Positions 4,801 through 46,043 of a stretch of 64,000 bases of DNA are shown one piece after another (within the stretch, counting starts at the first letter, position 1; every line of letters starts with the position of its first letter). The stretch covers positions 62,001-126,000 of the forward strand of contig NW_003314361.1 in the NCBI RefSeq assembly GCF_000143415.4, written 5' to 3'. Both the position numbers and the translations under genes were made by a program. The notes under the pieces are model-generated. The model made no database searches, had not been told where the DNA came from, and worked only from the letters and a program-made list of their open reading frames with translations. The DNA is from Selaginella moellendorffii (lineage: Eukaryota; Plantae; Lycopodiophyta).

Positions 4801-4806
4801 GCAAGG

Positions 4807-15933: not shown

Positions 15934-16537
15934 TGTAAGCAACCAAAGAGAATGACTTGAGAGACGGTCCATGGGGTTCAAATATAGAGGGAAAGGGCCC
16001 ATGAATAAGAGTGCACCCCCTTTTCCAATCGGTTAAGGGTCTTGGGATATTTGGGGTTAAACGTCCTTGGGGTTGAATAGTACTGGGTTGGGTGACCTCC
16101 CGGGAAGTCCAAACTCAGGAGCTTACATTTGGTATCGGAGCGGTCTCAAGTCCGACTCTGTTGGTTGGCTAAGGGAATCACACCACATGTTGATTGACAT
16201 TTGGCTGGTCCAGTTTGCTCCTGCTGGGCTCGACCCGAGGGGTAGGGTGTCAAGAGAGCGGGGCTCTCGGGAGAGCTGCAGCTCTTAGCTTCCATTCACG
16301 AGGGCGTGAACTTGCAGGGAAGCGTGGTGGATTGTAAGCAACCAAAGAGAACGACTTGAGAGACGGTCTATGGGGTTCAAATATAGAGGGAAAGGGCCCA
16401 TGAATAAGAGTGCACCCCCTTTTCCAATCGGTTAAGGGTCTTATCGGAGCGGTCTCAAGTCCGACTCTGTTGGTTGGCTAAGGGAATCACACCACATGTT
16501 GATTGACATTTGGCTGGTCCAGTTTGCTCCTGCTGGG
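15934..16537 (+). mobile_element. Cassandra-type TRIM in tandem array (LTR-internal-deleted LTR-internal)
   Basis: 194-bp LTR TGTAAG...CTTACA (15934-16127), PBS TGGTATCGGAGC (16130-16141), ~200-bp non-coding internal region, purine tract, second LTR from 16333, second internal copy 16443-16537; LTR contains a 5S rRNA-like segment. Confidence 0.88.
16056..16110 (+). promoter_or_regulatory. 5S rRNA-derived Pol III internal promoter segment (A box-IE-C box) inside the TRIM LTR
   Basis: GTTAAACGTCCTTGGGGTTGAATAGTACTGGGTTGGGTGACCTCCCGGGAAGTCC closely matches plant 5S rRNA GTTAAGCGTGCTTGGGCGAGAGTAGTACTAGGATGGGTGACCTCCTGGGAAGTCC. Confidence 0.88.
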
Positions 16538-16585
16538 TTTAGGGTTTAGGGTTTAGGGATCCCTAAACCCTAAACCGGTTTAGGG
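16535..16585. repeat. Interstitial plant telomere repeats, head-to-head
   Basis: (TTTAGGG)3-AT-(CCCTAAA)2CC-GGTTTAGGG. Confidence 0.9.
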
Positions 16586-18220
16586 ATAAGGAAGTTAGAT
16601 ATACCCTTATAGGGGAGAAGCTGCTTATGTTGTGATATAGTAAGTTAATGTCATAAAGGGAATGTTCATTGCCAAAGAAGACCATCATTAGGACGCCTAA
16701 ACACTCTAAAATATTAAGAAGTGGTGTTTGGTGTCGCAAGGGCATTAGATAAGGCCCAAGGGACTAAGTCCCTAGCGAATGATGGATAAGAGGTGCCATC
16801 TAAATGTTCAAAGTTGTGGAAACAAGAGGAATCTGTTTACCCGATTTGGACAAAGCCAAAAATGGGATTTTGGAAAGGCTAGTGATAGGCATATAAAGGC
16901 CCATAAATAACAACAATAATCCCGGTGTGTGGGATTATAAGGTGAGCATGCCCAGATTGAGGAACCACTCCTTAAACTATTGGGTAGGTTCATCCCTATG
17001 AATATTTGCTAAGGTATGATAGAAGGTGCCAAGCTATCCTCCTAGTCTGGAGGAGAATAACCAAAGGAAACATATGAGGCCAAAAGGCAAGTAGTATTGG
17101 GATGGAACTGAACCATAGAAATTGAAGGGCATAACCAACAGTGGTTATACAAGTTGGGAGTGGAAAATCAAGAGGGTGCTCGAGAATGTTGTTACTAGCA
17201 ACTGCGGTGCCATGGAGAGCCTAAAATGTGGAATTATCTATGTTAGACCATATGGTGAGTAGAGAGCTTGCAAAGGAGAAACCTTAGCAAGCTAAGGAAC
17301 AGAGTTCCTTGAAGGTTCCTGAAGACAATTTTAAGTAGATAAGTACTTAGAAAGCTAAGTGTAAATGGTTCCTAGAGCGCGCGAAATCAGAGTGGCGTAA
17401 CAGGAGTGTGGTCTTGAAACTGGCTATGAGGCGAGGCTATCAAGGTTGGGGAAGTAGTTCCCGAGTGTTCAAAGAGATGGTTTTGAACAAAAGTCGATGG
17501 TTTAGGACTTTCACGCTTATGCATGAACCATGTTATTGTGGCCAGATGACTTGCTAAGCGAAATTGAAAAGTCAGGGGAATAAATCCCCTAGTTGAATGT
17601 GCTAACTTCAAAAGGAGTGGCCCATGGGGCCGAGCATGGAGGAGTCCATGCATGATCACAGACTTGTCAAGCAAAAGGACTTGGTAGTGTGGAGGAACTA
17701 GGTTCCTAAGCTGTGATCTATAGCACGCTTTAAATACATGTTGGTGCACTGGCATGGGGAATCACGCCAGGCATCTAGGGTGATGCCATCCATAGATGCA
17801 TATACGGAGGTTGGGTTCGAGTCCCAACCCCCTAGTGCTTGGGTTTGAGTCCCAAATCATTAAGGCGTGGTGATGGTTTGGAATATGAGGACACTCATAT
17901 TTCGGTGGTCATGGACTCTTAGTGAGGAGACTGCCTTGGGCACACCACCAAGCGGGGGATGCTCTAGAGTCATGATGCACAGTTAGATTGCTTAGTGTGG
18001 CTCAGCATATCTAACTTGAGCACTTTGGTGCAAGTGGCACCAAAGATGTGGTGAAAGAGATGGGGACACTTAGTCTTAGTTGCTATGGACCCTTAGTTGG
18101 AAGGGTTAGCTTGGGTGCACTGCCAAGTGTGGGGGATGCCCCCGGGGTCATGGTGAATAACTTAAAGGTCTAGAAGACCTAGTACTTATTGGCAAACCTG
18201 TTAAGGTGCCGAGGTTAAAT

Positions 18221-18250
18221 CACTAAAAGCTCTATTTCGTTAAAGTGGGA
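18221..18250 (+). repeat. Left terminal inverted repeat
   Basis: CACTAAAAGCTCTATTTCGTTAAAGTGGGA. Confidence 0.85.
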
Positions 18251-18668
18251 ATTGTCATTATCCCACTTGTAAAATAACGTTTCCAAACCTTTATATAGTA
18301 TATAAATATAACAAAATTCAACTGCATTGAGGCACATGCCATTTTATTTTAAACAAGGAAATGTCTACTCAATCACTTCTCCTCCCCCTGCCACTGCTTC
18401 ACCTCTCTCTTCTCCTTGTCATCGTCGTCCAATTTCTTTCCATCCTTTTAATATTGGCTCAGTTGCTCCGAGTTTAAGTGGAGCCCAAGTCCCCATTCAA
18501 TCTTTACTTTCCCCTTATTAATAAAACAACTTCGTAGACTTCCAATAACATGCTGTAACACTTCTAGTATAATGCAAATCCTCTCAAAGAATTGTCTTTT
18601 AATATTAATACAATGGCATGGAACCCCATGCCATAATAAGTTACATTTTTAAATAAATACATGCCATT

Positions 18669-19553
18669 TCAGATTGTTATTTTTTGCCTCCAACGCCTAT
18701 ACAATAATCTTGGAATTTCATCACTCTCCACACTATCAGGATTTAAACCTAATAGTAATGCCATCTCTTCTCTAATACGTCCACACTCATGTTCAGTGGT
18801 CGAAGAACCCATCCGGTTGAGCAGATTATGGAGATGCGGATAGTGCTTGGCTAGACAATATACATGCCATAAATGATGACTGGTGTCTGTCCGATCAAAT
18901 GGCTTCAGATATACCGTTCCATCTACCATTTGGTTGATTTCTGCAGCCACCTCCTGGACTGGCCGGTTCTCTATCACCATCGCTTTAAGCCGTTTTGCAA
19001 GGTCCCCCAGAACATACGGTTTCTTCTCCCTAGTTTCCATAATGCAAGAGATGGGGTGCACTACATATGTGTGCGTGTTTGCTGCAGTTTTAATCGGCGA
19101 GTCATCGATGATGAGGATTTCACTTGACCTAGCAGTCCGGTTCATCACTACAGCCTCTGGCTTGACGAAGATGGGCTTGCTACCCCTCACATGGACCATA
19201 GTCAAGAAATCCTCCTGCGTTAGGAGAAAGTCAAATGGTAATATTACTCGCGTCTGATCGTGCATCATCTATAGCAACGTTAATGCATTGTGGCGCATCA
19301 TGGATGTCCAAACTCCCAATTGCAAATTGAACCCGGCCCTTTGTTTTAAGTGTCGCATGGTCATTATTAGATCCCGCAGTTTCTCCCGTATGATTAATAT
19401 GAATCTGTCTCTTTTGACCAACTTGCGACCGCAGGCTTTGGAGGGTGCAGTGACATTCGAGGACGAGCCACGCTCATGGGAGAAAAGGACACCGTTCAGA
19501 TCAAAAACGATACAGTACCTTCGCTGTGACTCTGAAATGAAATGCATCAGCAT
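18669..19553 (-). pseudogene. FCP1/NIF-family (CTD-phosphatase-like) HAD domain with one in-frame stop
   Basis: CIVFDLNGVL (HAD motif I, DLNG variant), LGVWTS, KPIFVKP, ILIIDDSPIKTAAN; ORFs 19269-19553 and 18669-19268 abut in frame across a TAG. Confidence 0.8.
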
Positions 19554-21403
19554 AAAAAATGGTACAAGTCAATTTTACCATCTACAATATTAGCGAATGG
19601 TGCACCCGATGGTCGTTGAGAGGGTTTTGGTCGAGGAAACGTGAAGGGCGGAAATACTCTCCTCTGCAATGTGGGGTCAATCGCATCCGATGGCGTGTGG
19701 GCACATGCCATTTCAGCTATAGACTCTGGTACAACTGGCTCAACAGTGGCATGGGGTGGTTCCGATGGCGTGTGATCACACGCCATTTCAGCTGGTGCCT
19801 CCGTTGGCAAAGTGGACATGACCGAACAGGCAGCAGGGGCGGTGTAGGGAGGTTCCAATGGCGTGTAGTCAGACGATTGGGCACACGTTGAGTCCGTTGG
19901 AAATGAGGATACGACTGGCTCGGCGGCTGGGGCGGCCTCATGCGGGTCCAATGGCGCCTGGTCACTGTCAGTTGGATACGTGGACAAGATTGACTCAGTG
20001 GTATGGGCAGCATCAAGTGGAGCGTGGTCAACTTGCTTGGCATTGATATGGATAGTAGCCTCCACCAGCTCTGATGACTCTTGCAGGCAAGTAGAGTCCA
20101 CTGGCAGATCCATATGCATGTCCAAATATCTCCCTTCGATTGAGATGGTATCCTCCCTACTGGCTACTAAAAGCAAACTCATTAGCACATTGAATCGACT
20201 ATACTGTATTTACCATCAACTGCTATTGAGGAACTAGGACCGATATCACTTGGGCGCACTGCTGATTCTGAAGGATTGGACATACGTTTCGACCCTTGCT
20301 TGGCACTATCCTTTCTCGACACTAAAGGCTAGAGTTTGTATCTTAATTCAACTGAATAATCTTTACTTACCATTTGCTCTGCGACCTACATGGACAATGT
20401 TAGAAATGGTAAAAGGTTAGGAATGGATGTACTATTATTTACCTGATGGTTTGTCTTGTATGACCCTTCCTCCGCTGCTCTTTGGCCACCTCAGGCTGGC
20501 CATCGTCGTCATCATCGTCATCGTCGTTATTGTGATCGTCACCATTGTGAGGACCATCCAAGTCCTCTTCGTCCTCCTCTTCTTTGTCCTCCTCTTCTTC
20601 CTTTTGCTCTTCCTGCTCTTTATCTTTCTCTGGCTCCTTATCCCCCTCCTGCATTTCTTCCATAGGCTGCTCAGGCTGGATGGCTTGTTCTTCCAGGACC
20701 ATCTTGGGAAAATCATCTGGCCGAGTCTCCATCTCAAAATACAAGACATCCATAGCCTGTTTTAGTGCGTGACCTAGGACCGTATCCTCACCCGACTGTC
20801 TTAACATGGTTTCTGCACGTTCTTGCACCCTTCGAAGACGACGAGATGAGAAAAACGTGGCCCTGACTTGAAAAGCATCCCTCATCTATTGTACCTCTCC
20901 ATTGAGATTGGGGAAGGGGAGTCCACCATAGGAATTTGAGTCAGGAGGTGGTGACTGGCTGCTTTCGCACACACGCCATAACTGCGAAGCATTACCTATC
21001 ATCTTTTCGTTGCCCTTCTTCCTTTTCGATTCAAACGCCTCTGATCCCGACGACTGTCCAATGTGCTTTCACTTTTTATGACCACTGTCAGTTTGAGCTT
21101 GGCTGGTGCTTGCTTGTTTTGCCTTTGAAGAAGTGTCTCCTACAAGGAATGGCATGAGACCACACGCCATTGCAAATATAATTTGTACCTCCTTTTTTCC
21201 TATTGCTTGTCTGTTTGTCCTTCTTCGACGTGCCACCAATGCGCTTTTCAGTCCTCGTGTCTGAATATTCACAACAATCTATAATCAAAATGGCGTGAGG
21301 CCTCACGTGACCTTACCTTGTGCAGGTTGTGAGCTCGGCCCAATATGGGTATCTTCAACAGTAGCTGTTAACGCCGTTTCAGCATCTGGGGGTGGCCACG
21401 CTC
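19547..21403 (-). pseudogene. Low-complexity/acidic linker exons of the cargo gene
   Basis: Short GT-AG introns (21404-21453, 21261-21316, 21140-21188 and others near 20170-20440) join exons in frame into the E/D-rich ORF 20439-20885; frame not resolved at the 20330-20440 micro-exon. Confidence 0.55.
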
Positions 21404-21472
21404 CTGCATACAGAGCTTGTGAGATAACATCTAAACTTAAAGTGCGTACTCACCAAGTTCGCAGAGAAGATA

Positions 21473-24010
21473 CTATTTTTCTTTGGCAATTGTAATTATA
21501 TGCTCCATTGAAGTCACCTCTTCAATGGAGTTTGTCACCGCAACACACGGGACACCCTTGAGTAGTGCGGCTCGAAAGAATAGTCCGCCGTAGTTGTACT
21601 CGATAATGCATTTGCCCTTGGAGTCGGAAGTAGGTGACCCACCCGCTATTGCGTTGAAGACCCAGCTGAGCATTTCCCATGCTGCACCTGGAGCTTTCTT
21701 TGGATTCGAAAGCTCCATAGCCGTCTTCAGTTCCTCAGGCACGGGTAAATTGACCTCCCTCAGATCAATTCGATCGGCCTTGTCGAACGAAGCTGGGAAG
21801 TCACTCCAGTCCCACTCTGTTGCAGGACCAATAACAAGGGCGAGTGTGAAGATGCGGACATTCGTCGGTATCTTCTTCTTAGCCATTATCCCATGGATCT
21901 CCCGCATCTCCTTGTTTTTCAACCGAGCCTTCACCTCGTTCAAGGCCTTCCAGAACTTGTGATAGGATTCGGAGTCGTAGATCATATAGTGGACTGAAGA
22001 TTCCACCTCCGCAAGTCCCACGATTAAGTCAATGATGGAGCTGACTTCATCTGCATGAGTGATCTCCTCGTTTGTGAAGTCCATCACACAAAAGATGTTC
22101 TTGACCTGCTCATCTCCGCGGGAAACGATGCTCCTCCACCTTTGATCCTCATCCGAATTCACGTATACCTGGTAAGGTTCTCGATAGGCCTCTGCTGTGG
22201 GGTCGAGCTGTTTCTGAAGCCGGCGGTCGACATCCCTCTTAATGAAATTTGGATACTGATCCAACTTCTCAGCTTTACTTTTCGTGGCATCCCGCAGCAG
22301 ATCGATGAACTTGGGGGCCCCCTTCACGTACTCGTCGATGTCTTCATTTGATAACTCCAGCTCTTCCATCATCTCTTGCGTGGTGTCGATGCTCACCCTC
22401 TCCACGGCCACTTGCTCGAAGATCCAATCCTTCAATAGCGCACGAGCTCTCAGAGTCGTGCACAAGTCCTCGTATGTCACAATATGGTCGGGAGTCATTT
22501 TGGTCTTGTTGAAGACTACCTCACCACGTAGAAGAGCATTAGCCACTGTCAGAAGGTCGTTGTCGTCTAGAGACCACGAGAAACGCAAGGCGTTGAGCTT
22601 CAAATCATTGGGCTTCCGACCGTCCTCCACACCCATTGAGTTTAGCAACTCCCCGTCATGGTACCTCCTCAGCACATCTACCCATTTGTCAAAAACAACT
22701 TTTGTCGCGAGTAGAATGTTATAGATGCTGAGTGTGTCATTGACCCCCAGTGTTTTCGAGAGAAGACTCGAGAATTCCTGCAATGGAAATGGCGTGAGGC
22801 CACATGCTATGCCACATGCAACGAGGCTTACCTGCCAGGCGCTAGTTGCTAGTGCACGTCCTTGTCCTGATTTTTGTGGCTTCTTCAGTTGAACCCAGAG
22901 CTTTCGTGTTTGTGCCAATGTCTCGTGCAGACCCGATTTGTAGCACGTTTCTTGCTTGACATTCTGCACGTGGGAGATGTATATGATAGATCGGAGGGGC
23001 GAGTTGCCTTTTATCAGGCGGAAAACTCTTGTCTTGAAGACTTTCTTCACCTCCTCACCCACCATAATATTCACAACTATCTCTTGCATCGCCAAGCTAG
23101 AATGCTGCTCGGAGACGGCATAGAACCGGATGTTCTGATCATCCAACACCTTCCTATTGATCAAGTCTGGAAACCTCGTCTCGCCCTTCATTGTTCGGTA
23201 GTAGGGGATCACGTCTACGATGTCGGGTGTTACTGGACTTGCCAGCATCTTCTGCTTCAGTTTCTCCACCCACTCATCAGATACTAGCCTGTGGTTGTAT
23301 TTGCTTTGATTGTCGATACGGCTCACGTCGATTATATATACTTTGTTGGAATAGTAACAAATACTATTATCTGTGACGATTTTTGCTACCTCTTCTTGCT
23401 CTTTCTGCTCTTTGCGGCTCTTTTTTTTGGTGGGTGTAGTGTTCGAACCCGAGGCAATGGCATCACCGAGTAGCTTCTTTTTTGGACCAGTAGAGTCGGA
23501 CGTCGGCTTGAGCTTGACCACCCTTTTCTGCTTTGGGGTAGTTTCCAGATCGACCCCCTTCCCCTTCGCTTCGCGAACTGGAGGCACTCTCAACGGCTCA
23601 ATGTTGGAATATAGTTTTTGAACATCGCCGTAGGTGAGGTCCGTGGATTCCATGTGATCTTCATAGACCCGTAGTGTCTTTGAAATTGTGGGCCTCCTGG
23701 ACAACCTCTCCCTAGCTCCCTCTAGGAATTCCTCATAGCCCCTGCCCCCCTCCGGGAAGCCGCTAGGATGTGCAAGGTGGATCTTGAAGGCGGACGCTGT
23801 CTCTACCACAAGTGCCAATCCATATTCTTGCATGGAATTGCATGGAGTGTCTGTCACTTGGATGAGGATCCCCATGCATTCTTTTCTCCCACCATCTGTG
23901 TTGTACAGCCTCAGATCCTCGCCTTCCATCCCGAAAGTCCAACTGGTGAGCTCCTCCCCCTTCTCTGCATCCACATTGACAGTGGCTGGAAGAAGAACGC
24001 AATTCCTCGC
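21473..24010 (-). CDS. Large cargo protein: ParB/Srx-like domain + helical region + eroded beta-class DNA amino-MTase-like fold
   Basis: 852-aa ORF. IDVSRID..YNHRLVSDEWVEKLKQKM...IVDV...FYAVSEQHSSLA...HVQN resembles ParB-N. C-terminal NPKKAP..EMLSWVF...GKCIIEYNYGGLFFRAALLKGVPCVAV resembles MTase motifs X-I-II. In-frame 54-nt intron at 22778-22831; upstream intron 24011-24091. Confidence 0.6.
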   Translation of the reverse strand, partial: ARNCVLLPATVNVDAEKGEELTSWTFGMEGEDLRLYNTDGGRKECMGILIQVTDTPCNSMQEYGLALVVETASAFKIHLAHPSGFPEGGRGYEEFLEGARERLSRRPTISKTLRVYEDHMESTDLTYGDVQKLYSNIEPLRVPPVREAKGKGVDLETTPKQKRVVKLKPTSDSTGPKKKLLGDAIASGSNTTPTKKKSRKEQKEQEEVAKIVTDNSICYYSNKVYIIDVSRIDNQSKYNHRLVSDEWVEKLKQKMLASPVTPDIVDVIPYYRTMKGETRFPDLINRKVLDDQNIRFYAVSEQHSSLAMQEIVVNIMVGEEVKKVFKTRVFRLIKGNSPLRSIIYISHVQNVKQETCYKSGLHETLAQTRKLWVQLKKPQKSGQGRALATSAWQVSLVACGIACGLTPFPLQEFSSLLSKTLGVNDTLSIYNILLATKVVFDKWVDVLRRYHDGELLNSMGVEDGRKPNDLKLNALRFSWSLDDNDLLTVANALLRGEVVFNKTKMTPDHIVTYEDLCTTLRARALLKDWIFEQVAVERVSIDTTQEMMEELELSNEDIDEYVKGAPKFIDLLRDATKSKAEKLDQYPNFIKRDVDRRLQKQLDPTAEAYREPYQVYVNSDEDQRWRSIVSRGDEQVKNIFCVMDFTNEEITHADEVSSIIDLIVGLAEVESSVHYMIYDSESYHKFWKALNEVKARLKNKEMREIHGIMAKKKIPTNVRIFTLALVIGPATEWDWSDFPASFDKADRIDLREVNLPVPEELKTAMELSNPKKAPGAAWEMLSWVFNAIAGGSPTSDSKGKCIIEYNYGGLFFRAALLKGVPCVAVTNSIEEVTSMEHIITIAKEK

Positions 24011-24439
24011 CTGTTCAGAAATGCACAACAATTAGAGCTGACAGATGAAAAGCTAGCAACTGGAAATAACGTGAGGCCACACGCCATTCACCACTGCATC
24101 AGATGTCTTGAGGCTGCATCCTAAGATGGCGTGAGGCTACACGCCATCTGTAACCGGACTGCACTCGAGAGCCCAATTGGTGCATGCCAATGTTGCTACT
24201 GAATGGCATGTGGCCTCATGCCATTTTCTACTTGGCCTAAAAGACTTACCATTTGAAGCCGAATGGAGGCGTGACAATCGAGGCCGGACTCGCTGGCGAA
24301 TGTGCACTGTGTGTGTAGCGGATCGTAGCAGCAAGGCTACTCTGCCACTTAACAGTTGGAGAGTGGCGCTAAAATCTCCCGGGACGCCAAGTGGGCTGCG
24401 TGTGGGTGGTGGAGTGGGCGGCGGAGTTGGCGGCGAAGT

Positions 24440-24700
24440 TACAAACTAGGTGTGTCTTGAAGTGGACGCCGATGCACACAAGCGCGATGCGAGCGCGAGT
24501 GTGATGCAAGCGCGAGTGGACGCCGATGCACACGAGAAACCTGTAGAGAAGGTAGATGAGCGCGAATGTGAGCGTGATCGCGAGTGGGAGCGCGATGCGA
24601 GCGCGAGTGTGATGCGAGCGCGAGTGCGAGTGTGATGCGAGCGCGAGCGTGAGTGTGATGCGAGCGTGAGCGCGAGTGTGATGCGAGCGCAAGCGCGAGT
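24440..24700. repeat. GC-rich degenerate tandem repeat (GCGCGAGTGTGATGCGA-type units)
   Basis: Visible periodic array near the 5' end of the cargo gene. Confidence 0.85.
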
Positions 24701-25020
24701 ACGAAGCAAAATGCAAAACCTAACCTCACACGCGCGAAATGTCACGACGGTTGGTAATCCCGCCACGTCATCATTCCTCGGACTTGGGCGCCACCATTAA
24801 TTTCTGGATTGCCGCGCGCATGCAAGCACGCAAAATCCAAAAGAAATCCGCAACGTCATCATTCCTCGGACTGCATGCACGCGAAATCCAAAAGAAAGAT
24901 CATGATTGGGATATTATTTAATACCCTTGCTATATTTATACCATGCATGATTGGATATTCCAAAGCATCTTGTATTTCCAAAAATGGCAGATGTTCATCT
25001 AAATAAAGAAATTCTATCTG

Positions 25021-26365
25021 TTTCTATTTTTCTCTCAAATCAATATTATAGCGTGTGGGCTCATGCAATTTTGAACCAAAGAAACCCAGAAAACGTTGGA
25101 CTCAAAATATTTTGAAAAAACCCTAAACATTTTAAACCCAAAAATCCAGGCGTCCTGTGGCGTTATTCCTTGAATGGCGTGTGGGCGCATGCCATTTTCA
25201 GGGCCAAATGCTGAATGGAGAAAAATTCCCTTTCAGTGCAAATGCTGCAAGAGGTAGATGCCGAGCACAAAGGACTATAACTACTTCACATAACACAGAT
25301 AAACTTTTCTCTATTTGGCAAAGATAAACTTTATAGCGTGTGGGCTCATGCAATTTTGAACCTAGAAAATGCATCAAAAAATTCTCGGCGTCATCTGGCG
25401 TTATCTCTTGACTGGCATGGGGCCGCATGCCATTTTCAGGGGCACATAAGAGTATATTCCTAGGATATTCTGACACGCGCGAGATTTTTTTGAGTTTTCC
25501 TGAGATCCAACCGTTAAATCGCAACTAGATTTTACAGAATGGTATACAATGTCTTTCTTGATGACCCTGCAAAGAAGCATCTCGATCGGACACCACATGA
25601 GACCACACGAGCCTTACAATGTTTCAGGGGCATTTGCCATAGATTCGACTGTTATTTTGCTCCAAGATTTTACAGTTTGGTGTGCATTGACCTTTCCATC
25701 GACACTGCAAAGGGACATCACAATCAGATGTGGGATCACAAGAAACTAACTTCACTAACTTTGGTTTCACCAAGATTTACGTAAGGAGTTATGAAATGAA
25801 AGGACCCTCTCTATTGAAATGTGTTTATGGTCCTAGGGGCATTGTGACATATCAAAGGATTTTGCATTAAGTTCTGTATTTGCATGTTTATCAAGCTACT
25901 GAATTGCTAAACCCTAAACCCTAAACCCTAAACATGTGGCAAATGCTGCGTGAAGAAAGATGCCCTTTCTGGGCAAATGCTGTAAGAGGCAGATGCCGAG
26001 CAGATGTATCTCAGGCTAGCGAAGGGGACAAAAAAAAGCTAGCTATAAACATGACGGGATGCAAATAGATTACTAGGCTGGTCCTGCGAAAATCAAAAAC
26101 CATAATTGAAAACATTGAAAATGCAAAAAGAAAGGTTTGTAATATTTTTGAATTTTAAGCAACCAAAGGAATGTAAGTAGGGCATGTGTTTGTAAGTTTA
26201 AAAATGCCTCAACCACTTAAATTCCCAAGTAAATAAAGCTGTTTCTATTTTTGGTATAGGTAAACTTTATAGCGTGTGGGCTCATGCAATTTTGAACCCA
26301 AAAATGCACCAAAAAATGCTCGACTAGCATTATTCTTTGAATGGCGTGTGGCCTTATATTGCCAT
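25021..26365 (+). repeat. Three dispersed copies of a ~130-180-bp unit (25021-25200, 25306-25440, 26242-26365), each with two palindrome copies
   Basis: Shared core TATAGCGTGTGGGCTCATGCAATTTTGAACC...TTGAATGGCGTGTGG. Confidence 0.8.
25907..25933 (-). repeat. Interstitial telomere repeat (CCCTAAA)~4
   Basis: CTAAACCCTAAACCCTAAACCCTAAAC. Confidence 0.85.
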
Positions 26366-26749
26366 AAATGGACGTACACACACAGCATAATTATTCCTTT
26401 ACACGACGAATAATCTTGGCGCGGATCGCTGACATGGCATGGCAAAGTTCGAATCACTGACATGGCACAGCTGGATTGAGGTAAGGACATGATGTGACAA
26501 AGTTCAACCTCCGACAACAAAGTCTAGAAGCTACTCAGTTTGAAATTTGTCAGATGAGTCATAAGATCTGGTTTGTCAGAGGATTTGATGTGACGTTCAA
26601 GCGTGTGTTATTTTTGAATTCTCGAACTCATTCCTAGATCTATCATTTTTGTGCGCCGTGTTCTTGGTTCCGCTGAGCGCAGTGAGCGCTGCTTGTGTAA
26701 GCGGCGTTGTGAGCTGTGGTTTATGCGTTTACGAGTGGTTGCGGCATTG

Positions 26750-26865
26750 CGAGCACCATTGCGAGCGGCAGTTTATGCGAGTGGCAGTTTGTGCGAGCGG
26801 CGCTACGAGCAGTTGCGGTGTTGCGAGCGGCGCTACGAGTAGTTGCAGTGTTGCGAGCGGCACTG
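26750..26865 (+). repeat. Short tandem repeat (~30-bp unit containing TTGCGAGCGGCGCTACGAG)
   Basis: 3-4 consecutive copies upstream of the transposase. Confidence 0.75.
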
Positions 26866-27227
26866 TCTTTGGTGTGGCTACCGCTTCCTCTTGATATTCG
26901 GCACTTGTGCTTCCTGGTATGTTCACCATGGAATGGGTTAGGACCACATTTAGAAATGGCATGAGGCCACATGCCATCTTGGGCCCTTGCAATTTCATGG
27001 CTAGCGTATTGTCATGTATGTTTTTACTTGCCTGCATCTGTGTGTATATCAAGATGGCATGAGGCCTCATGCCAATTTTGTGAATGCGAAATTTCACGTG
27101 GGTGTCAATAGCATGTTTGAATAATGGCATGTGGCCTCATGCTATTGAGGTTGTTTGGTATGTTATGATTTAGGCCATTCTCCAATCATTTTTTGTATGG
27201 TCTTAACTTCTTTTCTGCACTTTCAGA

Positions 27228-29966
27228 ATGGCCTTCAGGGTTGGGGAAAAGGTTTACATTTTGAATGGTGGGAAGAGAGTTGCAAAAGGGACCCTTGTGT
27301 CTATGGATCGGAACTTTGTTATACACTGTCAAAGGCTTGGGGAAGGCAATGCTGCTGTATCAGTAGAGACTGTCTTCGATGGGAATGTGGTCGCTATTGA
27401 ACGAGGAGAGATGGTCGTCGGGGTAAATGTTGTTGTTGCCTTGAAAAATCTTCAGAAGAAAGCAGATGTTGGGGACAGCGCAAGTGCGACGCATGTTCCC
27501 TCCGTGGATCTTAAAAACCGTGCTACATGGATTCAGGCAAAGGTGTTTCTAAACAACCCCGAGGGGGAGGTGGTAGCTGAGGGCTTAGCCACAGTTGTCG
27601 ATCCAAGAGATGCGGTTGCTAATCAAGAATTGGGCTGGGATGATATTGGAGTTGCGATTTTAGAGGTTGTTGACACAGAAGAAAACAGTCTGACTATTGG
27701 AAGCATTGTGCGGTGGAAATTGAGGCACTTAGTGTTTGAGAATGTGAAGGATTCACAATCAAACACCACTACAATTGATGACAGAACATCTCTTCATGGG
27801 AAAAGAAAGTACACCTTCCTAAAGCGCAGCCAAAGGGATCTGAGCAACGAACCGAAAAGGCAGAAAATGGCGATGGAGGTTCGAATGGTCTCGACAGTTG
27901 CTTGTGGCAAGAGGAGGTGCTGTCAACATGCTGATTGGGATGCTATTGAAGAGGAGAGAGCAAGATACAAGACATTGTCCTGAAGGGTAGCTCGCAATTT
28001 TGTGTATGAGGCATTACGGTCATCTGTTGATGCTTCAGAACATCAGGTGGGGGGCATGGTCTTCCAGAGGGGTTTGGTCTACATGAAGGCATGGAGAATC
28101 ATTTATGGAGTCCCTCGAACCACATTCTACAGAATCAAAACTGAGTTCGAGGAACAAAGGGTTCAATAGGCAGTCCATGGGAACAACAGTACGCACAAAA
28201 CCAGGGGTCATGTTGTATATGGAGAGGCAATCTTCAAGAGGTTTGTCGAGACATGTAGCGAGCAGCAACCACATAAAACCCGCCTCTTGGAAGATGGAAC
28301 ACGAGACACCCAACGAGTTCTCCCTTCCATGTATACCAAGGGGGCCATATTGGAAGATGTGAATTGGGAACTCTAGAGTAATGGCTACAGGAAGCTGAGC
28401 CAATCTAGATTTAGTAGATTGTGGAGCAACAGGTTCAGGGATGTGAGTATAGGAAAGTACTCCAGCTTTTCAAAGTGTGACGAGTGCACTGCTATCAAAA
28501 TGGCTTTGTCGAAGAATTCTTGCAGCGCTCAAGAGCGAGAGACGTTGGTTAGAAGGCGGCTCGACCACAACATCGAGCAGAGAAGCTACAGGACTGCATA
28601 TTATCATAACAGGATTCTCTCCATGGAGAGACCTGACTCTTACCTCTGCATCATCCACGACAAAATGGACCTGAAAAAGACGTGCTTACCTCGACTCAAT
28701 CCTGCCCCCAAGGCAATGTCTTCATCCATGCAGCTGCCTGTGTCTCTGTTTGGCATAATCGCTCATGGGCATGGTGCCCAGAACTATGGGAACTTCTTTG
28801 TACCTCTATGGGGTGGCGGGGGTGCAAACATGATGATTGCGTCCCTAGCAAAACACTTAAGGTCTTTGCAAAGTGCGTAGATTGAGCTGAACGGCCAACC
28901 CTTGCATAAGGCCCTTGTCGATCGAACCCCATACAGGGTTCAGCTGGAGGAGGAGCAAAGGCTTGCAGTATTGCGTGGGGCCCCATGCCATCCCAGTGAA
29001 TATGTTGGTCGTCAGATTGTAGGGTTATCACATGAGGCCTCATGCCATTCCGACGAGGCTGGTCGCCCGGTGAATGCACAGCCTCATCCAAAAGAAGTAG
29101 AATCTCAAGGAAGTTCTTGCGGCCGATGTGGCCTTCCACCCCATCTTCTGCTCCAAACAGACAATGCTGGCAGTGAGAACAAAAACATGTACGTCTTCGC
29201 GTACTTAGCGATGCTTGTTGCCAAAGGCATATTTGAAACGGTTACACTTGGCTTTCTCATGGTTGGGCACACTCATGAAGACGTCGATGCCATGTTCAGT
29301 CACCTGGCAGAGTCCCTCCGGCGATCGAATGTCCTCACCCTCCCACAACTCTACGATGAATTCCAAAATTGCATCAAAGGCACTGTTAAAGCTGCACTTG
29401 TGACAGAGGTTCCAGACTTTAAGGGGTTTGTAAGAGGCTACATCAGGGACGGATCCGAAACACTGATTGGCCACTCCAAGCCTCTTCAGTTTCATTTCAG
29501 CATGCGTGACGGTGCTCCAGTGATGAGGTACAAGATGAGAGAATGGGACACAGTGTGGCTGCCAGTGGACGGCATTGAACTCTTCAAGAGAGATCCCATA
29601 ACTGGGGAACCTATGATTCCTCAGGGTTCCCCACGGCCGATGCACCCGGATGGACTCAAAGACCAGCAAAGTATAGTGGCTGGGATTAGACAGCATATTG
29701 CCTTCTGGAAGAGGGGGTTGGTGTTTGGTGGAGAATCCTATTTTCAGAGGTGCAAGCCTTTGTTCGAATACTAGGAGAAGATTATATCTGCTATCCAAAA
29801 TGGGCCGGTTGTATATGAAGAATTGGAAGAGTCTTTTTGGCCAAAACCCAGAGCACCAGATAGTAGCGGAACAATGTCCTTTGGAAATGCAGTGACAGAT
29901 AACGATGTTGAGGATCACTATTGTGGGCCGAGGAACAAGAAGCCGGATTCAGCATTCAATTACTAA
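27228..29966 (+). pseudogene. DDD/E transposase (Sola-like/DUF7869-type motifs) with two N-terminal En/Spm TnpA-like domains; several nonsense codons
   Basis: Repeated VAKG..VSMD....HCQRLG...AVSVETV / VAEG...VVDP..VANQELG..IGVAI...SIVRW; C-x4-CC, FSKCDEC, IIHDKMD, LLQTDNAGSENKN, FLMVGHTHEDVDAMFS; ORFs 27228-27983, 28419-28880 and 28902-29774 are colinear pieces; splice acceptor TTTCAG just upstream. Confidence 0.85.
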
Positions 29967-31559
29967 GTTTCTAATGTATTTTATTTCAAGGTGAACAATC
30001 CGAATCTGAATCAGAGGAGGCGTGATGGCATGTGGCCTTACGCCATTCCTAGGTGAGATGATACAAATAACAAGTATAAATTCTTAGTTGTTCTAGCAAA
30101 TCTTACTTAAAGTTTAAAGTGAACAAGCCGAATATGAATTCATCGGATTGTTATAACAAATTGCGAGGTGATGGCATAAGGCGATACGCCATTTGAGAGT
30201 GGTAGCCATTCCTATATGAGGTGAGTGAAATATTTATTAGAAATACCTCATTCAATTGTGCACTTCTAAGTCTTGGTCCACTCAATACTGTTTGCATGTT
30301 TTTATTTTAATTCTTTCTCTAAAATGTTATTTAGCATGTGGCTTCATGCCATTGCTCTCCACAATCATGCATTGAATTTTTTTATCCTTGCATAATACTT
30401 CTCCATATATATAGCATGTGCGCACATGTGATATGGTTCATTAGGCCTGATATAGTGTGTGAGGTAAAACAAAGATGATGTGACATATGCATTTACCAAT
30501 CACACGTGCATAAATCTAATAATATGGCGTGTGGCCCATATTAATGGCACATAAACCCATATTGTGGGCTTACGTGCTTTATGTACCATCATTCCCTTGC
30601 AGCGTGTGTGTTGGTTTCCTTTTATAACACAACGAACTCCATATTTTAGGGTGAAGAGCGTTCTCATGGCAAGCACAAAATCTGTAAATGAGGCAGAAAA
30701 GGAGACAGAGAAAGAGATAGGTGAAGATGTAGAATATATAAGTCTTCCAAACTCCCCGTACTATACTCCAGGTGATCATTTTTCTGAACAAATGGCAACA
30801 TTAACAACTATCGAGAACGCCTCAGTAACGTCAGAGACAACAATCCAAAGCAAAACAATTGACCCGGAGAAGGATGATAGTACCGCTGAGAGTACCAAAA
30901 AGGAGGTGTCCACTAGCGCTTAGGCTTATAATGGCGTGTGCCCTCATGCTATTTACTTGATCACCAAATACCTTTTTCCCTTTGCACTAGTATATCTTAA
31001 TACCGGTCTGAGAAATAGAATGGCATGTGCCCTCAGGCCTTTTACTAAATCACCTTTGAAAGAAATGCAAGCCTCTATGTCATAAAAAAAAGGTACTAGA
31101 GAAATTCCTTAATAATATGAATGTTATTTAGTTTCATGAAAATACACTAAGGGTCAAATGAGTTAAATGACTTCTCCAGACTAGCAATGCCTCTTGCTAC
31201 ACCTTCACAATTAGATTCGTTAGAAAAAGATAACATTGAATAATATCTAAATGTTCTCACCATTAAGTTATATGTCTGGCTAATAGGAATGACGTTCATC
31301 TTGGAAAGCTCACCACACGCTCAATGAACAAACAAATAGTGTGTGCGCGCATGCCATCGCTCTTCTTTAGCTTCAGATTCGGCTTGTTCACCTTGACAAT
31401 GAGATTTATTATACAACCAGATGGACTCAGTCTGGACATAAAGTCACCGTGCTAGTCACCATGCCCCAGATATGTCTAGCCCCTGGACAAAAAACATATA
31501 ATTTCACGTCATTTTCAAATACTTGAAAATTTGTACCTAGTCCCATTTTACTAAATAAA

Positions 31560-31590
31560 TCCCACTTTAACGAAATAGAGCATCTAAGTG
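31560..31590 (-). repeat. Right terminal inverted repeat
   Basis: Reverse complement CACTTAGATGCTCTATTTCGTTAAAGTGGGA. Confidence 0.85.
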
Positions 31591-32684
31591 ATTTTATGGC
31601 TAAAAATAAGGACAAGATCCTTGTGAGGATAAGGAATAAGGTTCCTAGTTCAAAGTGTTGATTTGAACTATTGATGATAATGTGGCTTGGGCAAGGGGAC
31701 CAAGTGGGAAGAACACCTAAGGGAAATAAGCTATATTAAAGTGATGGCATAGTGAGTCCGAAGAAAATAATCTCTATAACACCCGTGGGAGGGTCACAAA
31801 ATTGGGCCATAGATAAAGCCCACAGTAGAAAATGCTAAAGAGATGTACTAAGGGTGAACACCCTCTGGATTTGGCAAAGCAAAAGCCTTCACTATAGAAC
31901 CGAAATGATGCCTCGAGAATGGAGGTAGCAATTTTATGTTGCTAGGTGCAACAATCAAGGATAGGAGTAAAAGACTAGTGGTTAAGAAAGAGCCATGGGA
32001 ATCATGGGAAAGAATCCAAATGGCAAAGTTAGGCCGAAAACACTAATGTGTTGGGTGCTAATGGATTGTGGGAAAGGCAATGTTTTCCCAAGGATGGATT
32101 TCGAATCACTCTAATTTGGCGAAACTGGAAGCTCTAAGGGGGGAGTAGTAAGGTAGCCAAATAATAGGGCCGTGGGTAGCCTTAGCACAAATTATGATAA
32201 CTGGAACTTAGTGCTAAAGGTGGCATGATATCGAAGAGAGGATGATGGTGCCCTCAAGTAAAGAACTTCCTAGGATGGAGAAGTGGAGTTGCATCATGTG
32301 CAACGAAAGGTGTCGGAGACACTTAGGAAATTGACTCTGAGAGTCAAAATTAAAAGTTCCAAAGTGCAAAGGTTATGTCGATGGAATCTGAGACTACTCA
32401 AGAATGAGTAGTGGAATTGAGTTAGAAAAAGTGTCTTTAACAGGTTTAGATAGAACTGAACCAATAAAAGGGAGAAAACCACCCCAGGTGGCCGAATGAG
32501 TCTCTATGTTAGAGAGACTATGCTCCTTAGAGGATGGACAAGGCATGGTGAGCCTTCGGTGTCAAACCATAGACAAATATTAGCTAGGTGCCAAGGATGG
32601 AAATGGTAATACATGCGGGTGTTACTTTATAAAAGGGTTTATCGTTTGATGAGGATATCAAACATTCTTTATGGGTGGTGGAGC

Positions 32685-34904
32685 TGTGAGACACAAAATC
32701 CCTAGGCCCCAAAGTGGAGCCGGAAGGGTGCCATGTGGTAGTGGCTGAAGCGAAAGCCAAACGAGCATAACACGTTTGGACCAAAAGCTCCAACTTGAAA
32801 GGTTGAGAGTGGGAGTGGAACTCCCAGTGAAGTGCTCAAAAAACAAGTGCGAAGCAAGCGATAAGTGAGTCTCTAGAAAAGGAGTCTGAGATGGACCTGA
32901 GATGGACCTGAGATGGAGTCTGAGATGGACCTGAGATGGAGTCTGAGATGGACCCAAGATGGAGTCCGAGATGGAGTCCGAGATGGACCCGAGATGGAGT
33001 CCAAGATGGACCTGAGATGGACCCAAGATGGAGTCCGAGATGGAGTCCGAGATGGACCCGAGATGGAGTCCAAGATGGACCTGAGATGGACCCGAGATGG
33101 AGTCCGAGATGGACCCGAGATGGAGTCCGAGATGGAGTCCAAGATGGAGTCTGAGATGGAGCCGAGATGGAGCCGAGATGGAGTCCGAGATGGACTTGAG
33201 ATGGAGTCCGAGATGGAGTCTGAGATGGAGTCTAAGATGGAGTCCGAGATGGACCCGAGATGGAGTCTGAGATAGAGTTCGAGATGGAGTCCGAGATAGA
33301 GTCTGAGATGGACCCGAGATGGAGTTCGAAATGGAGTTTGAGATGGACCCGAGATGGAGTCCGAGATGGACCTGAGATGGAGTCTGAGATGGAGTCCGAG
33401 ATGGACCTGAGATGGACCCGAGATGGAGTCTGAGATGGACCCGAGACCAAGACTGAGACCGAGTCCGAGTCCGAAACCGGGACCGGGACCGAGTCCGAGT
33501 CCGAGTTCAAGTCCAAGTCCGAGTTTGAATACTAANNNNNNNNNNNNNNNNNNNNNNNNNNNNNNNNNNNNNNNNNNNNNNNNNNNNNNNNNNNNNNNNN
33601 NNNNNNNNNNNNNNNNNNNNNNNNNNNNNNNNNNNNNNNNNNNNNNNNNNNNNNNNNNNNNNNNNNNNNNNNNNNNNNNNNNNNNNNNNNNNNNNNNNNN
33701 NNNNNNNNNNNNNNNNNNNNNNNNNNNNNNNNNNNNNNNNNNNNNNNNNNNNNNNNNNNNNNNNNNNNNNNNNNNNNNNNNNNNNNNNNNNNNNNNNNNN
33801 NNNNNNNNNNNNNNNNNNNNNNNNNNNNNNNNNNNNNNNNNNNNNNNNNNNNNNNNNNNNNNNNNNNNNNNNNNNNNNNNNNNNNNNNCCGTCCTTCCCC
33901 CCGGGGGGGGGGGGGTGGGGGGGTGTTGCAGGGGGTTCCAAAAGTATAGTAGGGAGAGGGTGGGGGTTGGAACCTAGTGGAGGGCTAGGAAAGGCCAGTT
34001 TGGCCCAGGAAAGGCTAGTTTGGCCCAGGAAGGCCATACCTAGTGTTGGATGATGAACTGACCACTGGGAAGTCCAAGACTAGAGTGAATACAGACTGAC
34101 AAGTGGGGTAACTTAGTGAAGTATTCAAGAGTCGGCTCTAGTTCCCCTGGGAGATCAAATGGTCGATGCTCTTAGTCTAAGTGTGGGTGGCACTACCTAC
34201 TTGGATACCTAGCATGGCTCAATAGAACCTTGCTCTAAGCCCATGGCTAGAGCACCCAAATGCGGAAGGCAGGGAGAGTACTCACAAGGCTCGCGTAAGG
34301 CCATGGTGTTCCAAAATGTTGCCCAAAAGTCCCAAACTGTGAAAAGAAAGAGGAGCCATCCTCTAGGGTAGAGACCAAGGATACGGTCATGTGAGGAGGA
34401 AGTCCTAAAGGACTGAGGGACTTAGTGGTCGGGCTTGTGGGCCTCAATCTAGTGGCAGTGTTGGTGAACACGACCATGGGCAAAAAGGGATTTGGTGGAG
34501 ACCGGAAAAGGGATATTGGGGAAGGCCATTCCCCATGCCTGCGGGCATCTTAAGGATGCTAAGGAGTGGATCTAGGATGGTCACTCATGGACAGATGGCC
34601 CAATCTTTGAGAGATGGGGCTGTGATGTAGGTGGTGTCAAACCACCAGTGTGACCAAGGTGAATGGGCATAGCATTAGCGTAATGGGCTGATATGTTGAT
34701 GGTACCTTGGGGTGTTGGTCATGGGATCGGACATGTGGAGCACTTGGACCAAGTGCAATGGTTTAGTGGCATGGATGCCATTCTTGGGGCTAGTAAGTCC
34801 CTAAGTCCAAAACTGGACTTACGGAGGTTGTGAGTGAGACTCCTCCAAGTGGTCAGAGGTATGGTTAAGTGACTAAAGTAGAATGGAAAATTTAATCCCT
34901 TACA
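32685..34904 (+). repeat. 3' LTR of F2 with expanded 11/12-bp tandem array (32880-33530) and an assembly gap
   Basis: TGTGAG...CTTACA; GAGATGGAGTCC/GAGATGGACCC units. Confidence 0.9.
33536..33888. other. Assembly gap (N run)
   Basis: Run of N. Confidence 1.
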
Positions 34905-44916: not shown

Positions 44917-46043
44917 TGTAAGGAACTAACTCCCCGAGGTGTCGTAGGCTAAAGGATCCCCGAAAGCATGACCAAAATGATAAAGATTTCATCGGATGGG
45001 ACCGAGTCTGAGATCGAGTCCAAGACCGACTCGGAGACCGAGTTCAAGATAGAGTCTGGAATCGAGTCCGAGGCTGACTCGGAGACCGAGTTCGAGACCG
45101 AGTCTGACATCCGAAATTGGGCCCGAGACCGAGTCTGAGGTCGAGTCCGAGGTCGGGTCCAAGATTGGGTCCGAGATCGAGTCCGAGATCGAGTCCGAGA
45201 TCGAGCTAGAGACTGAGTCCGAGTACTAATACGGGTCAAGGGGTGAAAGCCCAAAGCGTGCGTCTCCCAGGGGGGGGGGGGGATAGTGAGGTTCAGGAGC
45301 CAGTTTTGAAGGAACTCTCCAGTGGGGCTTCCAAACTGACTTGAGGTTGGGACTGGGACCGAGGGGCCTTGGGTGGGAGTGAGCATGGACGTGATTGGTG
45401 CCGGAGGGGCCATCCAAGGAAGTGCTCAAGAGTAGCTCCCACTCCCGAAAGGGAAATCAACTACGGTGCTCCCGGCTCATGTGGAGTGGTGCCCCACTTG
45501 AGTACCATGCGGCTCATTGGTCCTTGCCCTTCCTAGGGGCTTGGACCTTCCCTTCGGGATGGAAGTGGGGGGGTAAAGGTACCCATACCGGGCCGTTAGG
45601 CCACGATGTTTCGCCCCGGCTTCCCGAAGCAAGTGTTGCACCCAAGGCTTGCGATTGAAAGGGTCCCATGATCAAGTCTTGTGGTACCAAGGGATGTTAG
45701 GAACCTGGAAGCTTGGTGTGCTTGGCTGCTTGTGCTTGTGGGGAGTGTAGCCAAATCTTAAGTCTAGTCTAACCCGGGGAGGGGGATTATGAGAGATTTG
45801 GGAATCCATGGATGGATGGCTAACACTCTGTTGCTCAATGAGTAGCTGAAACCAAGTAGGACCAAGTAGGAGCTGGTACCATAGGCGGGAACCTTGGCGA
45901 GGAAACTTAGCAAAAGCCAAGGCAGTGTTGGACGGATAGACGAGGTAAGCTGGCAAATTGGAAAGGAAAAATTTGTGGCGTACAATTTGGTATCGGAGCC
46001 TTTTCCTCAGTTCTAGCGAAGGATAGAGGCAGATTGTTGGGAG

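Follow-up and report, generated by a model that had tools for sequence, protein, structure and literature searches.

A 22-bp palindrome recurs along the length of one DNA transposon of Selaginella moellendorffii, with several copies inside short predicted introns, and raises the question of what, if anything, reads it. The window, the entire 64,000-nucleotide stretch that was analyzed, contains the whole element (Table 1). It appears probable, if only just, that the palindromes are docking sites for a dimer of an element-encoded protein, probably the ParB-like one, which mark the element as self and sustain its activity under host methylation.

The transposon and its palindrome

Contigs of the empty site connect the left flank at 18225 directly to the right flank, and read depth is even over the whole element. 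The insertion target is an LTR-retrotransposon-like sequence. Elements of the Sola superfamily have terminal inverted repeats (TIRs) and a 4-bp target-site duplication (TSD), and those of CACTA/EnSpm have CACTA/G termini and a 2–3-bp TSD. The TIRs of about 27 bp and the 4-bp CTAA duplication match Sola-type ends (one insertion, with the terminal two bases uncertain). Membership in CACTA/EnSpm by termini was considered and rejected, since the empty-site contigs retain the CACTA at 18221, which is therefore target sequence. The 4-bp length of the Sola duplication was not found in the accessible parts of PMC4455052 and PMC5751038.

This copy of the transposon has decayed and undergone internal deletion. 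It belongs to a high-copy family of great homogeneity, in which few variants exceed 1%; in the 16 rows of family variation at 23960–24300, sub-consensus variants are at about 1% or less in the deepest run. Comparison with a family contig indicates that the accessory gene of this copy has lost roughly 0.5 kb of sequence at about 20967. The transposase reading frame carries five premature TAG/TGA stops and lacks the C-terminal 130 or so residues of its homologues, the family contig diverging from the window after 29960.

The palindrome has the consensus ATGGCRTG-W-GGCC-W-CAYGCCAT and is present in 27 copies within the 13,357-bp element. A weight matrix, trained on the same sites that it then counts, finds these 27 at a score of at least 10 and none in the remaining 50.6 kb of the window, where 0.1 would be expected. 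Pattern matching with up to two mismatches gives 25 matches (0.07 expected from shuffles). Among the 22 starts listed in the preliminary description, 18 are exact and three were displaced by one base (correctly 24066, 29027 and 30331), but 26341 retains only the left arm and the centre and is a half-site. Six additional full copies are at 18321 (weak), 25048, 25333, 26269, 30411 and 31336. Its one match outside the element, at 17749, is indeed weak, scoring slightly below 10 without the GGCC centre. The proposal that the arms are better conserved than the centre needs correction, as GGCC is retained in 18–25 of the 27 copies, similar to arm positions 3 (17/27) and 20 (19/27). The self-complementary centre is thus no free spacer but part of the site, which is best described as a dyad spanning 22 bp, each half contributing 11 bp.

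Table 1. Features of the transposon and their positions in the window.
Feature	Position	Strand	Evidence or remark
Whole DNA transposon, 13,357 bp	18227–31583		TIRs, empty-site contigs, even depth
Left TSD, CTAA	18223–18226	+	Most parsimonious reading; last two element bases uncertain
Right TSD, CTAA	31584–31587	+	
Left TIR, about 27 bp	18227–18253	+	
Right TIR	31557–31583	-	
Two palindromes by left end (18321 weak, 18613 perfect arms)	18321–18634		
Divergent accessory gene with several exons, perhaps a pair of genes	18672–24249	-	Spliced frames, homologues
NIF/HAD-like C-terminus of accessory gene	18672–19529	-	
Degenerate methyltransferase-like tail	about 21480–22150	-	
ParB-like domain of accessory gene	about 22850–23380	-	
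Two palindromes in 75-bp tandem duplication encoding Pro/Thr/Ala-rich linker	19690–19786		
Remnant of further motif-bearing intron, half-site 20972	20967–20995	-	Missing arm and acceptor present in family contigs
Predicted 49-nt intron, palindrome 21149–21170	21140–21188	-	Frame restored by removal
Predicted 56-nt intron, palindrome 21290–21311 (3 mismatches)	21261–21316	-	Frame restored by removal
Predicted 54-nt in-frame intron, palindrome 22789–22810	22778–22831	-	Conserved intron position
Predicted 81-nt intron, palindrome 24066–24087	24011–24091	-	GT..AG; retention puts stops in coding frame
Predicted first intron, acceptor 24114 or 24159	24114–24249	-	Palindrome 24203; also 24126 if acceptor 24114
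Predicted 50-nt intron without palindrome	21404–21453	-	
Further predicted palindrome-free introns	20386–20442, 20322–20370, 20167–20213, 19532–19578	-	
Five palindromes (25048, 25174, 25333, 25412, 26269) and half-site 26341	25048–26290		Duplicated units between both genes
Predicted transposase 5'-UTR intron, palindromes 26956, 27054, 27124	26917–27226	+	GT..AG, ends right before ATG
DUF7869 (Sola-like) DDE-type transposase, 912 codons	27228–29966	+	Pfam PF25273, E=1.5e-40
Two palindromes in variable linker of transposase (aa 581–588, 600–607)	28970–29048		Identity 0.10 and 0.02, gap fraction 0.44 and 0.81
Seven palindromes (30025, 30171, 30331, 30411, 30931, 31020, 31336) 3' of transposase	30025–31357		

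Placement in introns, linkers and coding DNA

Coding DNA is under-occupied, with four of the 27 palindromes although 58% of the element is coding (P=6e-6), and predicted introns are over-occupied, with five to six of the eight gene-body palindromes (P=6e-5 to 4e-6). The earlier observation that copies recur in short introns thus stands as an enrichment, but five of the ten predicted introns on the minus strand have none. The four introns originally named have GT..AG ends and hold one palindrome each. They are predicted to be spliced, on the basis of homology for 22778–22831 and of frame logic for the other three. None of the sequencing runs is recorded as RNA; contigs from two possible RNA runs cross 24011–24091 without a skip, but these runs extend over intergenic repeats too and could be from DNA, so that they count neither for nor against splicing. 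At 22778–22831, a RefSeq homologue from Selaginella (P0067) reads WQ|EFES where the spliced window reads WQ|EFSS, the intron position is kept in homologues of about 20% identity, and a distant relative (L049) has an acceptor at the matching place with no motif copy there. By this comparison, the intron is older than the palindrome that it holds.

These data bear on whether the palindromes could be tiny insertions (MITEs or introners), or RNA hairpins that make or aid short introns. Predicted introns hold six to ten copies overall, and a hairpin appears in two intron folds. However, only one of the four motif introns folds better than shuffles, Rfam gives no match, and the 22778–22831 position and its motif-free counterpart argue against an introner. 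Duplications of 3–8 bp flank none to two of the 27 copies, the motif's own AT ends being the sole 2-bp repeat; this argues against the independent MITE that had been named as a possible refutation. Arm-to-arm Watson-Crick pairing shows no excess (223 observed, 220.5 shuffled), nor does pairing of R6 with Y17 (14 against 13.2). We thus regard this explanation as largely refuted and very improbable. Arms without covariation, and copies without TSDs of their own, look instead like protein sites on double-stranded DNA, and such an element-confined dyad behaves as the preliminary description expected of a site for a dimeric protein.

The coding copies had been assigned to low-complexity inserts. 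This is correct for 19690 and 19765, in a Pro/Thr/Ala-rich repeat (by eye), but the transposase pair lies in a length-variable linker, which spans 56–127 residues across 23 aligned proteins. The largest gap between palindromes is 1,846 bp, and cluster members are 57–160 bp apart. CpG observed/expected is not raised close to the palindromes (0.58 near, 0.75 far), and a search for the exact palindrome in viral contigs found none.

Coding avoidance and intron enrichment may reflect selection maintaining sites distributed through the genes, as first proposed. In the one comparison of motif with flanking intron, over seven decayed copies of the moss-type relatives described below, the motif showed no overall excess of conservation (0.849 vs 0.848). 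The latter result would fit copies that are neutral relics of old tandem duplications with no present function, as would the clusters and the flanks shared within several groups (25048/25333/26269, 25174/25412 and 19690/19765). Most pairs, however, share the 22 bp alone, with a median flank identity at the random level (12/40), which indicates that the dyad was retained as its surroundings decayed; positions rich in GC and CpG also persist despite a methylated, C-to-T decaying family. Neutral descent is accordingly improbable, and we return to the dyads as protein sites.

Candidate readers and related families

The accessory gene has homologues in Selaginella, Adiantum and Riccia, and also encodes a helical middle domain and acidic and P/T-rich linkers. 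Its predicted protein weakly resembles ParB. Its Atlas neighbours are DUF3723 (0.97), and the Adiantum homologue is near DUF3723 (0.96) and a ParB_N cluster (0.91, the domain being carried by 35% of members). With hhalign, alignment to a YbdM/ParB-like profile scored 22–23 (best of 100 shuffles, 16.5; local probability 6–12%) and paired AVSEQHS with IVDGFHR; in global mode the score was not above shuffles, and Pfam, PHROGs and NCBIfam gave no ParB match for the window or its homologues. ParB CTPases have a GxxR CTP-binding motif. The arginine is here replaced by Ser, and the family reads S(G/E)(Q/L)HS with invariant S, H, S and A; the absence of GxxR lowers the case for a CTP clamp, not that for DNA binding.

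At the position of methyltransferase motif I, homologues read DIFSGG or DINTGG and the window EYNYGG (by eye). Pfam has no methyltransferase match in the accessory gene, and DPPY was not seen by eye. Because the tail lacks a visibly intact catalytic motif, a reader or scaffold role is likelier than methylation. The NIF domain (PF03031) is just below the cut-off in the window (E=2e-4, 21.5 bits against 21.8) and is fused in the Adiantum homologue (6e-17). Models of the accessory protein reached a pLDDT of 35 from the single sequence and 50 from an alignment, with the ParB-like part below 50. Foldseek returned no match at E<=0.001, VIA none at Z>=5, and the PDB sequence search and word-seeded protein searches with the accessory gene nothing; tblastn of two homologues against phages had no match.

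In distant relatives of moss type, a different palindrome of 18 bp, ATYTRGTGGCCACYARAT, is distributed along the whole element, and some of its copies are intronic. It has 333 matches in 80 loci (6.3 expected), and 24 of the 62 non-redundant loci hold three copies or more. One locus (L006) has 39 of these dyads, all between its TIRs, and a divergent NIF gene. L049 has the same accessory gene as the window, flanked on both sides by arrays alignable to L006 in inverted orientation; the gene's middle domain is significant (E=5.9e-9), a GGQH motif is seen by eye, and its ParB-like part is non-significant by HMM (0.8 bits). This is the only one of the 62 loci with a significant accessory-gene match, and a Pfam scan of 145 ORFs (at least 108 residues), drawn from 41 of the 80 loci, gave a single NIF match and no ParB. 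Family-specific dyads adjoin the transposase in L001 (10 copies), L020 (10–11), L021 (6–7) and L060 (8); in L020 and L060 the arrays flank transposases, and the accessory gene is absent from their short contigs. The 22-bp motif of the window reaches at most two copies per locus at three mismatches, in nine of the 80 loci; as a whole it is not conserved in related loci.

Such loci raise the possibility that the transposase itself, through TnpA-like or HTH domains, binds the dyads as extended subterminal repeats for synapsis or self-activation. The transposase has a DN..NKN..GHT..D..F signature, which we take to resemble Sola, and weak matches to TNP1/EN/SPM (E=0.012) and HTH_psq (E=0.032); no relatives were found in viral contigs, and "DUF7869" was not found in the literature search. 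The dyads adjoining transposases with no accessory gene seen support such a reader, and L006, which keeps 39 sites with no ParB-like gene detected, fits it equally well. Transposases and TnpA are also described as sequence-specific activators at motif clusters in the available part of bioRxiv 10.64898/2026.08.24.746577. In that account, however, TnpA binds termini, whereas only three of the 27 palindromes lie within 400 bp of an element end and the sites traverse both genes; an accessory gene may also lie beyond the arrays on the relatives' short contigs. We therefore rate a transposase reader as rather unlikely.

The window and moss-type families share a central G-W-GGCC-W-C octamer, which one host transcription or chromatin factor exploited by the element could read. 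The outer arms are family-specific, however, the dyads of four other related families are unrelated, and a core shared among five families would arise by chance at about 4% (a rough estimate). The lack of sites in the 50.6 kb of the window outside the element likewise makes a host factor quite improbable.

The dyads are confined to the element, spaced along it and depleted in coding DNA, with neither covariation nor TSDs, and a second, distant family has the same accessory gene and a dyad of its own. In the mechanism that we favour, a dimer of the ParB-like accessory protein would dock on the double-stranded dyads as candidate binding sites, and might load there and then spread as bacterial ParB does. 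Short tandem duplications would create new dyads, of which only those in introns, UTRs and linkers would persist. The dyads would label the entire element as self, so that activity is retained despite host methylation, an anti-silencing outcome proposed by analogy with VANC and TnpA. A wider scenario is conceivable but doubtful: that in Sola-like transposons of seed-free plants a ParB-fold protein of bacterial or phage derivation loads at parS-like dyads (every 0.1–1.8 kb, in introns and linkers), spreads and shields the element from silencing, dyad and protein diverging per family. If true, this would give plants a third system of sequence-specific anti-silencing, derived from partition, in addition to VANC and TnpA, and targeted epigenome editing might gain a tool from it. 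The element offers a precise 22-bp candidate target for ParB-like accessory proteins of eukaryotic transposons, whose binding to and modification of the elements encoding them has so far only been proposed, in a very young high-copy family where methylation escape matters; the 18-bp dyad of the second plant family is material for swap experiments.

Comparison with known systems

In bacterial ParB-parS and RK2 KorB-OB, dyads dispersed over a replicon are read by a ParB-fold dimer. The present case differs in being a eukaryotic transposon, with no ParA, without the CTP-pocket arginine and with no HTH found in the ParB-like protein. A literature search found neither DUF3723 and ParB together nor any description of a ParB-like gene accompanied by intronic dyads spread over a whole element; the Ectocarpus and Bostrychia supplements and Iyer 2011, outside its scope, may bear on this.

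The general ideas are already in print, as far as the accessible portions of the following sources describe them: VANC motifs in introns, and a red-algal ParB (PAG3) beside inverted repeats. VANC21 binds motifs in intronic, intergenic and terminal regions of Arabidopsis VANDAL (Mutator-like) elements (PMC5735166). Shared features are a family-specific motif in non-coding DNA including introns, spread by tandem duplication, as proposed here, and an element-borne accessory gene. VANC motifs, however, are 8–9-bp non-palindromic words in tandem arrays, whereas the 22-bp dyads are mostly single, with unrelated flanks and four in coding linkers; VANC belongs to a Mutator-like element, and the putative system here has a DUF7869 transposase and accessory homologues unrelated by Pfam.

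PAG3 of the Bostrychia Plavaka (EnSpm) element is ParB-like and adjoins inverted repeats proposed as its sites (bioRxiv 10.1101/2025.02.11.637652). PAG3 fuses its ParB-like domain to a modification-type domain, an arrangement that the window's accessory protein would share if its weak ParB likeness is real. The PAG3 repeats are tandem arrays beside the gene, and the fused domain is a 2OG oxygenase. In the window, the dyads run end to end and into introns, the transposase is of DUF7869 type, and the accessory gene has methyltransferase-like and NIF segments.

In Spm/CACTA, TnpA motifs of 8–10 bp cluster at the termini (bioRxiv 10.64898/2026.08.24.746577). An element-encoded protein reading family-specific motifs, as proposed here, and the weak TNP1/EN/SPM domain of the transposase are points of likeness, but the window element has no CACTA ends once the TSD is correctly placed.

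The Ectocarpus element Sola1-1_Ec32 carries a divergent gene for ParB and an N4/N6 methyltransferase (PMC12477816), and the main text of that source, as far as available, makes no mention of palindromes. The window element resembles it in being large and Sola-like, with a ParB-like and methyltransferase-like gene that runs antiparallel to the transposase; the Ectocarpus methyltransferase is termed putatively active, whereas the methyltransferase-like tail in the window looks degenerate.

Form of the palindrome

The 22-bp palindrome of the preliminary description is real, well defined and testable. A pattern search returned 25 matches with at most two mismatches (0.07 expected), and a weight matrix trained on 24 of the element's own sites found 27 sites scoring at least 10, all between 18321 and 31357 (0.1 expected from Markov simulations). 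The remaining 50.6 kb of the window contains no site at this score. Of the 22 copies first listed by position, 18 were placed exactly and three were off by one, while at 26341 no more than a half site is present. The copies share the consensus ATGGCRTG-W-GGCC-W-CAYGCCAT. Its centre had been regarded as loosely kept between better-conserved arms, but its GGCC positions are retained in 18–25 of the 27 copies. Because the centre is also palindromic in itself, the motif is a 22-bp dyad, not a pair of arms flanking a free spacer.

Pairing between the motif arms (223) equals that of shuffled arms (220.5), only one of the four motif introns outperforms shuffled sequences in folding, and the motif has no match in Rfam. 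A tiny MITE with its own TSDs, offered earlier as an alternative, was not borne out, as none of the copy sets is flanked by TSDs. Most site pairs have unrelated flanks; a small number clearly arose by local duplication. This pattern fits a putative double-stranded protein site that was spread by duplication and outlasted its own flanks.

The transposon, its genes and the placement of sites

All 27 sites lie inside a 13,357-bp transposon with TIRs of approximately 27 bp. Empty-site contigs connect its left flank directly to its right flank, and a 4-bp duplication of CTAA is the most parsimonious reading of the end sequences. An apparent CACTA end is false, being imitated by the nearly palindromic target site. 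Read depth is uniform across the element, most contigs are 95–99% or more identical, and variants are scarce in a 341-bp test stretch; the family is therefore young and of high copy number. Most differences between the window copy and the family are compatible with C-to-T decay, and family sequence is missing from the window copy at ~20967 and after 29960.

The transposase gene (plus strand, 912 codons, five premature stops) matches Pfam DUF7869 at E=1.5e-40 and, weakly, TNP1/EN/SPM and HTH profiles; its product presumably resembles Sola transposases. The accessory gene is on the minus strand and multi-exon; with five predicted introns excised, its frame spans 942 codons and contains two stops (TAG/TGA), and its 3' part is continuous if one takes account of the 1-nt difference that family contigs show at 20464. 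Homologues of the element proteins occur in Selaginella, Adiantum, Riccia and Ceratodon, and a full-library HMMER search with the accessory gene gave eight at E≤0.001. Together with TTTAGGG repeats and introns of 47–57 nt, the homologues point to a host among the seed-free land plants. Its N-terminal domain is weakly identified as ParB-like. Local hhalign to a YbdM-family profile aligns both ParB motifs and scores 22–23, where 100 shuffles reach no more than 16.5 (probability 6–12%); in global mode the alignment to this profile was no better than shuffles, and neither HMM libraries nor fold searches returned a ParB match. Atlas neighbours of the domain are DUF3723, and those of the Adiantum homologue DUF3723 and a ParB_N cluster at 0.91. 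Fungal DUF3723 proteins are Starship cargo; a DUF3723–ParB connection was not found in the published literature. A degenerate methyltransferase-like tail was recognised by eye, and the NIF domain, fused in the fern (Adiantum) homologue, scores slightly below the cut-off.

Coding DNA holds four of the 27 sites (five if 24126 is exonic) though it makes up 58% of the element (P=6e-6). In the minus-strand gene, five or six of eight sites fall in predicted introns, which make up ~7% of the available positions (P=6e-5 or 4e-6). The proposed distribution through introns held in part, five of the ten predicted introns of this gene having a copy and five having none. A sixth motif-bearing predicted intron is truncated by a deletion at 20967. 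In the transposase gene, three further copies lie inside an intron predicted for the 5'-UTR, and the two coding copies sit in a 56–127-aa linker with near-zero conservation. Adjacent sites are at most 1,846 bp apart.

At the predicted intron 22778–22831, the 18 residues that the intron would encode are precisely those missing from a Selaginella RefSeq homologue (WQ|EFES vs WQ|EFSS), two metagenomic ORFs begin with LQ at the junction, and L049, a metagenome locus with a related transposase, has an acceptor at this position and no motif copy in the region. Because of these homologue junctions and the motif-free acceptor, the intron is older than the motif; as judged from sequence, the motif entered a pre-existing predicted intron.

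Coordinates of the element and of further features in the window and in related metagenome loci
Feature	Position	Remarks
Transposon	18227-31583	
Nearly palindromic target site	18217-18226; 31584-31594	Mimics a longer TIR
Telomere-type TTTAGGG runs	16535-16576	Inverted head-to-head junction, left of element
CCCTAAA run	25907-25933	Inside element, between its two genes
GC-rich tandem repeats	24472-24711; ~26730-26870	Directly upstream of each divergent gene; GCGAGC-rich 23-bp units and similar; CpG-rich; possibly promoter or 5'-UTR
Atlas hits	21476-24031	Fungal DUF3723 proteins, nearest feature neighbours of the ParB-like domain
62-bp inverted repeat (79%)	29972-30032; 31350-31411	Includes motif copies 30025 and 31336; adjoins point where family contigs diverge from window; may mark internal rearrangement
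122-codon acidic ORF	30555-30923	3' of transposase; no Pfam match; perhaps of a third gene
12-bp tandem arrays (GAGATGGAGTCC-like)	32876-33535; 39306-39684; 45000-45240	In neighbouring nested LTR-retrotransposon-like copies
22-bp dyads, unrelated sequence	L020:49-353 and 2834-2977; L060:2-566	47-bp and 77-bp tandem units; two other DUF7869 families
Two tandem NIF-like segments	L006:2496-2916 and 4653-5199; L077:13572-15290	Inside or beside moss-type elements

Dyads in related families

Related transposases were found in 80 metagenome loci (26–39% in the best segment), termed moss-type because the nearest named homologues in that range are Ceratodon proteins. The window motif is not a family feature of these loci, which have other dyads instead. 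One of these, 18 bp long and sharing the central GTGGCCAC with the window motif, has 333 matches (6.3 expected); of the 62 non-redundant loci, 24 have at least three copies. L006 contains 39 copies, all enclosed by its TIRs and surrounding a divergent NIF gene. The accessory gene of the window element recurs in L049, where its middle domain matches at E=5.9e-9 and its ParB-like part is recognisable only by eye. It lies between arrays whose inverted sequence aligns to the arrays of L006, an arrangement which suggests that L006 lost the accessory gene. NIF genes appear to be recurrent cargo of the moss-type lineage. Four loci (L001, L020, L021, L060) have four other dyads of 18–30 bp, those of L020 partly in predicted introns.

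In seven loci, two copies of the 18-bp dyad lie within a predicted transposase-gene intron. The check proposed earlier, whether motif positions are better conserved than the surrounding intron, showed no excess overall (0.849 vs 0.848), in a test that is weak because the loci are decayed copies of one family; at G/C columns, the dyad and the rest of the intron gave 0.849 and 0.765.

Candidate reader of the dyads

The dyads could form a self-recognition lattice along the element, which the ParB-like accessory protein would read, with anti-silencing as the likely outcome; we give this reading a slightly better than even chance. In the main rival, which we consider rather unlikely, the transposase reads the dyads; TnpA and transposases are reported to activate cognate copies via motif clusters (bioRxiv 10.64898/2026.08.24.746577). 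That the element itself encodes the reader, as one protein or the other, is quite probable. The CpG o/e ratio close to sites is 0.58, compared with 0.75 in the rest of the element and ~0.36 in the flanks; these values give no support for methylation protection at sites, and the higher ratio in the element than in the flanks is explicable by its youth alone.

An element-wide, intron-lodged dyad together with a ParB-like accessory gene was not found in the literature searched. VANC21, an anti-silencing protein, is described as binding family-specific motifs of VANDAL21 that lie in introns, between genes and at the termini (PMC5735166). The ParB-like accessory gene of red algae adjoins inverted-repeat arrays and is proposed to encode a binder of its own element (bioRxiv 10.1101/2025.02.11.637652). 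Ectocarpus Sola1-1 is reported to carry a divergent ParB+MTase gene (PMC12477816), and phage-derived ParB-linked MTases in eukaryotes are the subject of a review (PMC4738411).
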